The notes under the pieces: model-generated
Seen by the model: the letters and a program-made list of their open reading frames with translations, nothing else
Database searches by the model: none
What the model was told of the DNA's origin: nothing
From: a virus
Lineage: Duplodnaviria > Heunggongvirae > Uroviricota > Caudoviricetes
Strand: one strand, 5' to 3'
IMG/VR virus record: IMGVR_UViG_2706794686_000017
Length of the DNA stretch: 40,805 nucleotides
Translations under genes and position numbers: made by a program
Part shown: positions 20,444 through 24,456 of the stretch, in pieces
Layout of the letters: each line of letters begins with the position of its first letter
Position numbering within the stretch: position 1 is the stretch's first letter

Positions 20444-21357
20444 TGCTGACCCCACAAACAGATTTCACGCTCAATCTCACGACGAGTCATGAGACCTTTC
20501 CATTGCTTACCGCCAGCATATGTCCAGCGACGTAGCTGATCACATGCGCCTTTGATATCGCCCTGGTTTATTTTGCGAAGAAGCGTCGATGTTCTGAAAT
20601 TGCCAGCACCCACGTTGTAAACGAATGAGTAAAGAGCGCCGCGCGTTGTTTCCGGTATATCGACTTTGATGTACGGGTTAATTTGTCTGGCGACAGTGGC
20701 AAGGTCTTTATTCAAGAGTGTTTTGCATTCTGCTTTGGTATACGTTTTACCGAGCATGATGTCTTTTCCTGTATGCCCGTGACATACAGTCCATACACCA
20801 ACAATATCTTTGTATGGTATGTAGCTGACACCTTCCAGACCATCGTTACCACTTGGGCCAGTGATTAACACTGATGCTATAGCAATTGCTCCGCCACCAA
20901 TAGCAGCAGCAACNCCTTTCCATTGCTTACCGCCAGCATATGTCCAGCGACGTAGCTGATCACATGCGCCTTTGATATCGCCCTGGTTTATTTTGCGAAG
21001 AAGCGTCGATGTTCTGAAATTGCCAGCGCCCACGTTGTAAACGAACGAGTAAAGAGCGCCGCGCGTTGTTTCCGGTATATCGACTTTGATGTACGGGTTA
21101 ATTTGTCTGGCGACAGTGGCAAGGTCTTTATTCAAGAGTGTTTTGCATTCTGCTTTGGTATACGTTTTACCGAGCATGATGTCTTTTCCTGTATGCCCGT
21201 GACATACAGTCCATACACCAATGATATCTTTGTATGGTATGTAGCTGACACCTTCCAGACCATCGTTACCACTTGGGCCAGTGATTAACACTGATGCTAT
21301 AGCAATTGCTCCGCCACCAATAGCAGCAGCAACGACTTTTCGTAATGATGGAGGCAT
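20440..21357 (-). CDS. Endolysin (lysozyme with N-terminal signal-anchor-release-like segment); ORF carries an in-frame tandem duplication at the single N (20914)
   Basis: [44 protein letters not shown]... followed by a second near-identical 140-codon copy; an unduplicated gene would encode about 165 aa. Confidence 0.75.
20495..21333. repeat. Tandem direct repeat, 2 x about 420 bp (20495..20913 and 20915..21333) joined at N 20914
   Basis: The two copies differ at only three positions seen by eye (gccagcaccc vs gccagcgccc; acgaatgagt vs acgaacgagt; caacaatatc vs caatgatatc). Confidence 0.85.
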
Positions 21358-21572
21358 TATTCACCTCTCGCAGCCTTGCGCTTATCTTCTTTAATCTTGA
21401 AATAAAGGTTTGTCAGGTACGTCAGCAGGCCAAATACCAGACTACCCAGCACACCGATTGCAGCCCACTGTGACGGAGTTACTCTATCGAGCAACTGTAA
21501 AAACCAGTAGCCAGCACTGCCTGCGGAGGTGCCGTAGGCAATGCCTGTTGAAATTTTGTCCATGGATTTCAT
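21357..21572 (-). CDS. Holin (class II, EssD/EssQ-like)
   Basis: 71 aa from [31 protein letters not shown]...; two hydrophobic segments and a charged C-terminus; immediately upstream of the endolysin. Confidence 0.8.
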
Positions 21573-21823
21573 AGCCTCACCTCCGCACGGAACGGATGGC
21601 ATAGTTATTATGTGTAGGCTTTCAGACACATCAATCAGAGCCTTAATTGATATATATGCTGGAGACGATGCAATATAAAAAGCTCGCCGTAGCGAGCTAA
21701 TAAAATGTATTTCTCTGATATTATGTTTATTTGTATTAGCTCAGACTTGACATCACAGGTTTCGTATATAGAACATCATCAAATCTGTCAGTTTGCTATG
21801 AATGAGATATAGTAATTGAAGAG

Positions 21824-22219
21824 CTAACCTCGCATGTCAAAGCCAGATTTCTGAAAATCTCTGTAGACTTCCGGATTGTTGAAGGCCGGAAATTTGGCTT
21901 TATGAGCTGCGGACTTTATCGCTTCGCAATAGGCTTTATCACCGTTACTGGTAGATATTTTTAACGCCGTGCCATCCTGAGAGAATTCCATATGCAACCT
22001 GCATTTTTTCCCTTTCCAGTTATGCGGCTCATCAAGTTTGGCATTAATTGCAGCTCTGATTCCCCGCGCTTGCGCCCCCCATTCATCCTGATCATCCCAG
22101 CGTCCTGAACTGCAACTACCTGTAGCAGTAGTTTTGTGGCAATCTGAAGGGTGTAAAGGTGTGCATCCCGCAACAAAACCGACCCAAAAAGTCAACATAA
22201 CGATTTTCTTTAATCCCAC
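21824..22219 (-). CDS. Lipoprotein with TolA C-terminal (domain III)-like fold, paralogue 1
   Basis: GTG start with GAGGAG ribosome-binding site; signal peptide and lipobox VAGC; C-terminal GKKCRLHMEFSQDGTALKISTSNGDKAYCEAIKSAAHKAKFPAFNNPEVYRDFQ aligns with paralogue 2 and with TolA domain III as recalled. Confidence 0.55.
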   Translation of the reverse strand: MGLKKIVMLTFWVGFVAGCTPLHPSDCHKTTATGSCSSGRWDDQDEWGAQARGIRAAINAKLDEPHNWKGKKCRLHMEFSQDGTALKISTSNGDKAYCEAIKSAAHKAKFPAFNNPEVYRDFQKSGFDMRG

Positions 22220-22369
22220 TTCTTGCTCCTCAATCCATTAAAATCTCAGCAATAGTAGTTGTTACGTCCGCCACTGGCTCAGAGCTGACTATCCGCTAAA
22301 TTTAGCTCAGTGCCGTAGCTGTGTCAGAACAAACCTAAGCCGAAACCGTTTATTACAAAACAATAAATA

Positions 22370-22798
22370 TCAGGGTTTAAAATCCAGCACCCCATTTTGA
22401 AATACTTTATATACTTCCGGCGAAGGGGGGGCAGGTATATCAGCATTCTTTATCGCATTCATCGCTTCACGACATAAATCGAGGTCTCCACTTTCTCTTT
22501 TAACCTCCAGTAGAAGGCCATTCGGGGCCATATGCATTCTCAGTGTACACTCTTTTCCTGAATACTTACTCGCATCCCCGAACTGTTTTTCGATGGCGCT
22601 CTTGATTTGATGGGCATACAGACGGATATCCTCACTAACATCAGAAGTACGTTCAGATGAACTCACATACTGTGTCTCTATTGCTTTATCGGAGTAATAT
22701 GATGTACGGTCATGATAATTTGTCGATACAGCATCAGTGCACCCGATAATAATCCCACTAATAATCAACGTAAGAATTGATGCGCTACGAAAACCCAT
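22370..22798 (-). CDS. Lipoprotein with TolA C-terminal (domain III)-like domain, paralogue 2
   Basis: Signal peptide and lipobox IIGC; C-terminus HQIKSAIEKQFGDASKYSGKECTLRMHMAPNGLLLEVKRESGDLDLCREAMNAIKNADIPAPPSPEVYKVFQNGVLDFKP closely resembles the E. coli TolA C-terminus as recalled. Confidence 0.65.
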   Translation of the reverse strand: MGFRSASILTLIISGIIIGCTDAVSTNYHDRTSYYSDKAIETQYVSSSERTSDVSEDIRLYAHQIKSAIEKQFGDASKYSGKECTLRMHMAPNGLLLEVKRESGDLDLCREAMNAIKNADIPAPPSPEVYKVFQNGVLDFKP

Positions 22799-22827
22799 TT
22801 TTCCTCACATATGTCATATAGTAAAGG

Positions 22828-22857
22828 ATTATATATACCGTTGTTTTGGACGCTCAA
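22828..22857 (-). promoter_or_regulatory. Candidate sigma70 promoter for the TolA-III-like lipoprotein gene
   Basis: Minus strand TTGAGC, 18-nt spacer, TATAAT, about 30 nt upstream of the GAGGAAA ribosome-binding site and ATG. Confidence 0.4.
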
Positions 22858-23431
22858 ACAGCGAATCAGATCAAATAAAACGCACATTTGTTAACATTTA
22901 CACAAAGTCTGCGTGGGATATTCTGAAAGAATATCCATAATGTGGAGAGANNNNNNNNNNNNNNNNNNNNNNNNNNNNNNNNNNNNNNNNNNNNNNNNNN
23001 NNNNNNNNNNNNNNNNNNNNNNNNNNNNNNNNNNNNNNNNNNNNNNNNNNNNNNNNNNNNNNNNNNNNNNNNNNNNNNNNNNNNNNNNNNNNNNNNNNNN
23101 NNNNNGGTCATCATCAGATGACTGGAAAAAAGGAAAACAAAAAATACTCATCATACAGTTTTGATTGCAGGGATGAGCCTGCTATGCACAATATGCAGAA
23201 TATAAGCAAGATAANNNNNNNNNNNNNNNNNNNNNNNNNNNNNNNNNNNNNNNNNATCAGGATAACGCATCATCAGCCCCTGCCAAGAAATATCAAAACT
23301 CCCGCCAGCAATGTGTTATCACAATATTGTAAAAAAAACACAGCACCGAAACTATAACTGGTCTCTGTTATAATTTGGAGCAGAAAGACCAGTTGCCCAA
23401 CTAGCAGCATTCTCCCCTGCTTTCCTGACGT

Positions 23432-23458
23432 AAAAAAACCGCATTAAGCGGTTTTTTT
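23432..23458 (-). terminator. Intrinsic terminator downstream of Q (tR'-like)
   Basis: AAAAAAA-CCGC-attaa-GCGG-TTTTTTT hairpin about 80 bp downstream of the Q-like ORF stop. Confidence 0.55.
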
Positions 23459-23538
23459 ACGATGTCCATGTCTGCAATCCGCCTCGCGATACAGCTTTGC
23501 GAAGCATAGCAAAATTGAAGCAGTTTATACGTAAGAAA

Positions 23539-23857
23539 TCAAGCCATTTTCTCAGCAAATGATTCACGCATGGGAATATATAGGGCATACTCAGCAACAG
23601 CTAACCAATTAGCAATCCGTTTTTCGCATGTGCTAAAACACCACTCTGGGTGTGCATCATTTAGCAATTCAGCCATTTTGCGCTTAGTCATCCCCCGCCC
23701 TTCATAGCGTTGCCGGAGAATGCAAATCAATCCTGGATGCTCTGCCAGCACCTCACTTATGACTCGATCAATACATAACGCCTCTGCATCAGTACAATGC
23801 GCCAGCCAGCTCTTTTGCTTGCCGTTGATCATCTCTCGCAAAAACGCTTCCAGCTCN
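23539..23857 (-). CDS. Late antiterminator Q-like protein, C-terminal part (N-terminus masked by N-run)
   Basis: Visible C-terminal 105 aa (...CTDAEALCIDRVISEVLAEHPGLICILRQRYEGRGMTKRKMAELLNDAHPEWCFSTCEKR...); position immediately upstream of tR'-like terminator and lysis genes. Confidence 0.5.
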
Positions 23858-24456
23858 NNNNNNNNNNNNNNNNNNNNNNNNNNNNNNNNNNNNNNNNNNN
23901 NNNNNNNNNNNNNNNNNNNNNNNNNNNNNNNNNNNNNNNNNNNNNNNNNNNNNNNNNNNNNNNNNNNNNNNNNNNNNNNNNNNNNNNNNNNNNNNNNNNN
24001 NNNNNNNNNNNNNNNNNNNNNNNNNNNNNNNNNNNNNNNNNNNNNNNNNNNNNNNNNNNNNNNNNNNNNNNNNNNNNNNNNNNNNNNNNNNNNNNNNNNN
24101 NNNNNNNNNNNNNNNNNNNNNNNNNNNNNNNNNNNNNNNNNNNNNNNNNNNNNNNNNNNNNNNNNNNNNNNNNNNNNNNNNNNNNNNNNNNNNAGCATGC
24201 ANNNNNNNNNNNNNNNNNNNNNNNNNNNNNNNNNNNNNNNNNNNNNNNNNNNNNNNNNNNNNNNNNNNNNNNNNNNNNNNNNNNNNNNNNNNNNNNNNNN
24301 NNNNNNNNNNNNNNNNNNNNNNNNNNNNNNNNNNNNNNNNNNNNNNNNNNNNNNNNNNNNNNNNNNNNNNNNNNNNNNNNNNNNNNNNNNNNNNNNNNNN
24401 NNNNNNNNNNNNNNNNNNNNNNNNNNNNNNNNNNNNNNNNNNNNNNNNNNNNNNNN

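Follow-up and report, generated by a model that had tools for sequence, protein, structure and literature searches.

What are two small lipoprotein genes doing between the antiterminator gene and the holin gene of a tailed phage, when the domain that they encode looks like a piece of the host envelope protein TolA? The question is raised by a Caudoviricetes virus record (IMG/VR IMGVR_UViG_2706794686_000017), whose 40,805 nucleotides are the window analyzed here, and the two genes are referred to as A and B. An earlier note on this DNA, made from the letters alone, had described the products as tandem paralogous lipoproteins resembling TolA domain III (TolAIII), lying between Q and the holin, the second of them with a plausible promoter of its own; it had proposed a decoy against colicins or Ff phage, or a disturbance of Tol-Pal. 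That location is borne out by PHROG 753 upstream and by Pfam PF04971 (P21 holin) downstream, and alignments, predicted structures and lipobox signals bear out the reading of A and B as predicted lipoproteins with the TolAIII fold.

Both proteins score above the gathering score of Pfam PF06519 (TolA C-terminal; 25 bits), A with 82.6 bits (E 2.4e-23) and B with 54.6 bits (E 1.3e-14). The closer of the two to TolA is A, which aligns without gaps through the final residue to E. coli TolA 334–421, with 52 of 88 residues identical (59%), and which matches the solved domain (PDB ID: 1S62, 3QDP and 1TOL) at E 5e-28; this agrees with the TolA C-terminal motif given in the earlier note. B aligns to residues 341–419 of TolA in PDB at E 5e-9, with 27 of 81 residues identical (33%), and the similarity over the TolA region of about residues 330–421 is thus significant for both. 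The C-terminal domains of A and B also align with each other, as had been claimed, in an alignment that extends over the full length of the proteins (29% identity, E 2e-18), and the two are members of the same phage family, PHROG 5772, of unknown function.

In AlphaFold2 models of A and B the domain is predicted as alpha-beta-beta-alpha-alpha-beta with a predicted local distance difference test (pLDDT) score >90, preceded by disorder in the first 39 residues of B and the first 52 residues of A (pLDDT <50 for residues 1–52 of A). The fold search was made with the B model only, the fold of A being taken from its 59% identity to the solved domain. In Foldseek the B model superimposes on E. coli TolAIII (PDB ID: 3QDP) with a root-mean-square deviation of 1.1 Å, a TM score of 0.89 and a probability of 1.00, and it also matches complexes with the filamentous-phage protein g3p and with colicin A (ColA; PDB ID: 2X9A, 3QDR and 1TOL, of which 2X9A is the If1 g3p–TolAIII complex). 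The disulfide pair of TolA, Cys363–Cys388, is kept as C84/C109 in A and C73/C98 in B, and both cysteines are invariant in 23 of 23 aligned homologues.

The N-termini of A and B have a short basic n-region (R4 in A; K4 and K5 in B), a hydrophobic core and a canonical lipobox (pattern [LVI][ASTVI][GAS]C) that is also kept across homologues; its contexts, GIIIGC followed by TDAV in A and FVAGC followed by TPLH in B, contain the IIGC and VAGC lipoboxes noted earlier. The residue at +2 is Thr in both proteins, which by the Lol-avoidance rule of E. coli predicts their sorting to the outer membrane. The tether that follows is disordered and rich in Ser, Thr and Tyr in A (residues 21–54). In B it contains, right behind the lipid cysteine and in a stretch where AlphaFold confidence is low, a C-x7-C-x8-C motif (CTPLHPSDCHKTTATGSC; residues 20–38, window positions 22106–22162), which has no counterpart in TolA; the motif is retained in the B clade at 40–60% identity (homologues P0174, P0179, P0188, P0209 and P0255) and may form a disulfide-bonded loop. 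Gene A is an intact open reading frame (ORF) that brings its own Shine-Dalgarno sequence and start codon in addition to the lipoprotein signal; after a spacer of 150 nt, gene B begins with a GTG codon preceded by a GAGGAG Shine-Dalgarno sequence. Coordinates of these and neighboring features are collected in Table 1.

Table 1. Features of the A–B locus (window positions; residue numbers for protein parts)
Feature	Position	Strand	Basis and remarks
Gene A (lipoprotein, 142 aa)	22798..22370	minus	ORF; start reads MGFRSASILTLIISGIIIGC followed by TDAV
Gene B (lipoprotein, 131 aa)	22219..21824	minus	ORF; start reads MGLKKIVMLTFWVGFVAGC followed by TPLH
Parts of A	residues 1-142		signal peptide 1-19; lipid Cys20 (IIGC followed by TD); tether 21-54; TolAIII 55-142
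Parts of B	residues 1-131		signal peptide 1-18; lipid Cys19 (VAGC followed by TP); tether 20-43; TolAIII 44-131
TolAIII domain of A (residues 55-142)	22373..22636	minus	TolA alignment
TolAIII domain of B (residues 44-131)	21827..22090	minus	TolA alignment and model
Candidate moron promoter, sigma-70-like TTGAGC-18-TATAAT	22857..22828	minus	10/12 consensus; upstream of A
Intrinsic terminator AGCTCGCTACGGCGAGCT then TTTTTAT	21698..21681	minus	gap between B and holin
P21-type holin S (71 aa)	21357..21572	minus	Pfam PF04971, E 2e-35; opens lysis cassette
STnc100 element (Rfam RF02076)	22909..23099	minus	directly upstream of A
Hairpin with U-tract AAAAAAACCGCTTAATGCGGTTTTTTT	23433..23453	minus	~90 nt past the Q stop codon; read from sequence
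Q-like antiterminator gene (DUF1133 / PHROG 753)	23539..24081	minus	PHROG 753, E 2e-79; partly N-masked

With E. coli TolA domain III, A and B have in common the fold and the disulfide pair, and A also the beta3 edge strand; unlike TolA, they have no domain I anchor, no helical domain II, no tol-pal operon and no link to TolQR. In place of the transmembrane domain I that binds TolQ and TolR both proteins carry a cleavable lipoprotein signal peptide, and the long Ala/Lys/Glu-rich domain II is absent, matches to the full-TolA profile being limited to positions ~265–387. Both fall below the cut-off of the full-TolA model NF007065 (213 bits; A 107.8, B 53.7). With TIGR02794 (cut-off 59.45) B is again below, at 47.2, and A exceeds the cut-off, at 75.6, through its C-terminal part alone. 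The genes lie outside any tol-pal operon, flanked on one side by the Q-like gene of the phage and on the other by that for the holin. TolA is coupled to the TolQR motor, whereas A and B are predicted to be held by a lipid tether at the outer membrane.

What such a free domain might bind can be considered from the known surfaces of TolAIII, which is the periplasmic hub for the N-terminus of TolB, the N1 domain of g3p, colicin N (ColN) and colicin A; g3p-N1 and ColN use its beta3 edge, and colicin A the opposite beta2 edge (PMC7391070, PMC3365938, PMC4339652). In A the beta3 strand LDFKP is identical to TolA 417–421. D418 and K420 of this strand are required for binding of g3p, ColN and TolB, and with the TolA substitutions D418P and K420P the binding of ColN and g3p is lost and cells show a leaky tol phenotype (PMC4339652). 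Of this strand B, with FDMRG, retains no more than the Asp and one basic position. The colicin A contacts on TolA are K368, K379, K396 and L375–P380 (PMC3365938); A retains two of the three cation-pi lysines (K100 and K117) plus the LLEVK strand, and B has E78, S89 and H106 at the three contact-lysine positions. The affinity of TolA for TolB is weak (dissociation constant 40–200 µM; PMC7391070) and that for ColN, measured alongside g3p-N1, is about 1–3 µM (PMC4339652), so that a modest amount of decoy could titrate invaders without shutting down Tol-Pal.

The reading favored here, with a probability of roughly 0.5, is that A and B are outer-membrane-tethered, uncoupled TolAIII decoys acting against Tol-dependent colicins and/or the g3p of filamentous phages. 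On this reading they would be accessory (moron) genes inserted between Q and the holin in the late operon, and the flexible tether of 24–34 residues would hold free TolAIII in the outer periplasm, at the place where group A colicins first appear with their translocation domains and g3p with its N1 domain. TolA-binding epitopes would be captured there by beta-strand augmentation; having neither domain I nor domain II, A and B would not be coupled to the TolQR motor, no force would be transduced and import would stall, leaving the lysogen tolerant to colicins and/or able to exclude filamentous phage. A, as a close TolAIII mimic, could bind g3p, ColN and ColA-type ligands; B, to judge from its changed colicin A face, probably has a different ligand range. 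Sequence and models establish the identity of the domain, its fold, the lipoprotein signals, purifying selection, the terminator and the spread over mobile elements, whereas location at the outer membrane, expression in the lysogen, binding of ligands and protection are inferred.

The anatomy of the locus is that of a moron because a terminator lies 3' of B and a promoter-like site 5' of A, and it suggests that A–B is a moron-type unit within a Q-dependent late operon that may be expressed in the lysogen. The terminator, a strong one formed by a 7-pair hairpin with five G-C pairs and a T-run, is the sole terminator-like site from a search of 21300–23700. All of 80 IMG/VR loci share the order A–B–S21 holin, but not the types of Q and endolysin: the cassette follows either of two Q types and precedes endolysins of different types. 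Presence of the cassette also varies between otherwise related genomes, as is typical of a moron.

Small accessory outer-membrane lipoproteins that protect their carrier have precedents of the same class of layout. Cor (phi80/mEp167), Llp (T5) and TraT (F) are exclusion lipoproteins that block a receptor such as FhuA or OmpA. A and B differ from them in the proposed mimicry of a periplasmic import hub, in having no sequence or fold relationship to them, and in having no PADLOC match. A further comparable system is the engineered periplasmic TolAIII (a construct of Wan and Baneyx, 1998, employed in PMC6195910), likewise a free exported domain beside TolA; it is soluble, whereas A and B are natural mobile-element genes, diverged, predicted to be lipid-anchored and presumably expressed at a far lower level. 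Exported TolAIII fused to a signal sequence has a dominant effect on the envelope, releasing periplasmic protein in E. coli (PMC6195910). With periplasmic TolAIII, Levengood-Freyermuth, Click and Webster in 1993 reportedly obtained colicin tolerance together with leakiness.

The distribution of the genes bears on their function. Of 5426 complete E. coli genomes, 773 (~14%) carry the A–B pair at ≥80% coverage, nearly always at ≥99% identity; the reference phage collection, with a TolAIII-like gene in 1 of 50,697 records, is an uninformative set. The A family comprises 46 clusters (65–100% identity), from E. coli and Shigella only, and the B family 370 clusters from Escherichia, Shigella, Citrobacter, Enterobacter, Serratia, Klebsiella and Raoultella, on plasmids as well as chromosomes. 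The earlier description as tandem paralogues is loose: their identity is only 29%, each also occurs without the other, and they belong to separate lineages and are not recent duplicates. One solo A variant lies in another prophage, in the order Q, methylase, tRNAs, A and then, further downstream and separated from it by several other genes, a SASA-family (nanS-p-like) esterase gene; A there has the position that the stx genes occupy in Stx phages.

Solo B-like genes are found in settings of quite different kinds. On conjugative IncK2/Z plasmids (L010 and L011, 5001–5432) a B-like gene follows the relaxase gene after 68 nt, in the same orientation, and may be co-expressed with transfer functions; cells bearing conjugative pili are open to filamentous phages that depend on TolA. 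Others are on pO157, near toxB, in a Citrobacter chromosome, and in a Serratia or Enterobacter chromosome between nrdDG and genes for GmrSD and HEPN proteins. By tblastn, TolAIII-like genes are present on 1297 of 72,556 plasmids. A Klebsiella operon (K. pneumoniae plasmid NZ_CP031718.1, L013, 1512–2245) encodes a TolAIII lipoprotein (123 aa) and a TonB C-terminal domain with a signal peptide (121 aa); it occurs at ≥99% identity on 379 PLSDB plasmids, mostly ColRNAI plasmids of 10–12 kb, and runs divergently from a cluster for a cloacin-like bacteriocin, immunity and lysis. Its lipoprotein resembles A and B in having a lipobox followed by TolAIII (39% identical to A, with the C-terminus PLDFRP) and in its location on a mobile element, and differs from them in its TonB C-terminal partner and the adjacent cloacin-like cluster; the gene has been noted in the literature only as 'tolA' (PMC6807383, PMC10269471). 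These conjugative-plasmid, bacteriocin-plasmid and defense-gene contexts favor a protective decoy over a role in lysis only, and the complete lysis cassette of the phage itself (3' of the holin come lysozyme, Rz and Rz1; PF00959, PF03245 and PF06085) is counted on the same side.

A search of 1.84 billion representatives returned 130 relatives, of which 72 are 100–170 aa long; 50 of these 72 have a lipobox, and in none of the 50 is the +2 residue Asp. Some multi-domain metagenomic proteins contain TolAIII-like stretches in multiple copies, 11 separate ones in P0205 (804 aa) and 6 in P0216 (2512 aa).

Several observations weigh against the decoy reading. A and B lie inside a Q-dependent late operon, and their linkage to the S21 holin is tight in all 80 viral loci, an arrangement that fits a role in lysis as well. 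The promoter that had been proposed for A is present as a TTGAGC-18-TATAAT site, and the terminator after B fits a moron; however, the site is a consensus match only, in a region with 9 promoter-like sites as compared with 5.2 ± 2.4 in shuffles (no clear enrichment), and it is not conserved upstream of the A variant of an O43 prophage, which is 74% identical. B is without the colicin A-contact lysines. Cells that over-express periplasmic TolAIII become leaky (PMC6195910), and a decoy could therefore carry a cost. The absence of a PADLOC model for the family and the listing of PHROG 5772 as of unknown function are both neutral as to a role in defense.

The leading alternative is that A and B sabotage Tol-Pal at lysis: TolAIII made in bulk by Q-antiterminated late transcription would compete for the TolB N-terminus, TolB–Pal would no longer be dissociated by force, and the outer membrane would loosen, the resulting tol phenotype aiding final lysis or vesicle release. 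The site immediately 5' of the holin in the late operon and the unbroken A–B–S21 linkage are what such a role would lead one to expect, the TolB-binding beta3 strand is conserved, exported TolAIII releases periplasmic protein in E. coli (PMC6195910), and the D418P and K420P forms of TolA lose TolB binding and leak (PMC4339652). It is nevertheless judged unlikely. Close relatives of B are found singly, both on plasmids (conjugative and virulence) and in chromosomal islands that have no lysis genes in their vicinity, and an A variant stands alone at the stx position, several genes ahead of the SASA-family esterase gene; in the present phage a full spanin pair is already provided, B and the holin have a terminator between them, and the low affinity of TolA for TolB means that very high expression would be needed. 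The decoy and the sabotage of Tol-Pal are not mutually exclusive.

A second alternative, to which a slightly lower chance is given, is that the TolAIII domains bind a non-classical ligand and that the likeness to TolA reflects nothing but a reused scaffold. Candidates for the ligand would be another class of bacteriocin, a contact-dependent or type VI secretion system toxin, a conjugation component (giving entry exclusion) or, in the manner of Bor and TraT, a host-derived factor. Several features of B speak for such a reading, namely its divergence to 33% identity, its changed colicin A face (E78, S89, H106) and its conserved cysteine motif in the tether, which TolA does not have; the plasmid copy in a relaxase operon and the breadth and diversity of the short TolAIII lipoproteins (those 50 of 72 with a lipobox) point the same way. 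The nearly identical TolA edge strands in A speak against it, as does the secreted TonB C-terminal partner on bacteriocin plasmids, which points to both of the bacteriocin import machines.

That A is a dead tolA fragment and B a hitch-hiking ORF can be given next to no credence, since the pseudogene call made by the annotation pipeline PGAP in strain ECCHD184 is set against an intact A ORF with all of its expression and export signals, annotated elsewhere by PGAP as a full coding sequence (CDS), conserved at ≥99% across hundreds of genomes, under purifying selection and without blastn-level DNA similarity to chromosomal tolA in the 5426 genomes. Estimates of dN/dS are 0.05–0.12 for B (strong constraint) and about 0.3 for A, and both genes are thus under purifying selection. 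Recent capture of the host gene was likewise rejected: blastn with the A domain finds matches in 897 of the 5426 genomes, all of them prophage copies or variants and never the chromosomal tolA. PGAP labels within the A family are inconsistent, the ECCHD184 gene being a pseudogene 'tolA, incomplete, missing N-terminus' (L002 6671–6931) and that of the O43 prophage a full 'cell envelope integrity protein TolA' CDS (L012 3839–4267). Because gene A is complete, bringing along a ribosome-binding site and a signal peptide of its own, is under purifying selection and has no blastn similarity to tolA, the labels 'tolA' and 'tolA pseudogene' are an annotation artifact, and a recurrent annotation error is thereby put right. 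The 'TolA' EDL933_2012 of a transcriptome study of enterohemorrhagic E. coli under ciprofloxacin was not used as evidence of expression, its supplement describing the product as a tail fiber protein.

Assignment of the TolAIII domain is already in public annotation, and the genes are common. The new element would be exclusion by an accessory gene through mimicry of an import hub instead of masking of a receptor. Resistance to colicins and other bacteriocins is usually ascribed to cognate immunity proteins, to receptor loss or to loss of Tol or Ton. If the decoy reading is true, a horizontally transferred import-hub decoy would be a third and cheap route to resistance. About one of every seven sequenced E. 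coli would have it, as would pO157, IncK/Z resistance plasmids and Klebsiella plasmids of common types; it would bear on competition in the gut, on the design of therapeutic bacteriocins and phages that enter through Tol, and on how conjugative plasmids offset the vulnerability to phage that comes with their pili. In the literature covered by full-text searches, no paper was found that tests or proposes a function for TolAIII lipoproteins of phages or plasmids, only table entries and annotations (PMC6854850, PMC6807383, PMC10269471). More tentatively, and with somewhat less confidence than an even chance, Enterobacterales mobile elements, among them prophages, conjugative and bacteriocin plasmids and defense islands, may carry widespread, unrecognized import-hub decoys (tethered TolAIII and, in Klebsiella, also a secreted TonB C-terminal domain) that would give broad protection from entire bacteriocin groups and from pilus-dependent filamentous phages, independent of immunity proteins, by capturing translocation epitopes ahead of the energized host protein.

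The remaining features of the locus lie upstream of A. The Q-like gene was placed by alignment of the window to the ECCHD184 locus (L002 8144–8686), and the hairpin with a U-tract that follows it is expected, by analogy with lambdoid late operons, to be the early terminator of the late transcript, overridden by Q. Of the STnc100 element, a member of an sRNA family, the portion readable in the window is 22909–22950, the remainder being N-masked; at the matching positions RF02076 scores 114 bits in L001 (5444–5634) and 86.6 bits in ECCHD184 (L002 7210–7396). Five STnc100 copies are present in the O43 Stx-like prophage (L012 4375–4587; 6346–7325), one immediately after the A variant and a tandem array of four further downstream, before the SASA-family esterase gene. 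In its behavior STnc100 resembles a repeat situated at the junctions between modules in prophage late regions.

The window matches an ECCHD184-type E. coli prophage; phage mEp460_ev081 is a further match, over the stretch between the holin and position 22950. Its N runs (22951–23105, 23215–23255, 23857–24193 and 24202–24456) are under-length by comparison with the 99–100% identical ECCHD184 locus (e.g. 155 N as against ~250 nt), and coordinates upstream of 22950 are therefore not transferable one-to-one. Within the SAR-endolysin gene there is a 420-nt tandem duplication (20495–20794 and 20915–21214; 99% identical) with a single N at 20914, which joins the two copies in one ORF of 305 codons and which could be either an assembly artifact or real. 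In the mEp460 record the S21 holin is labeled 'phage tail fiber protein'.

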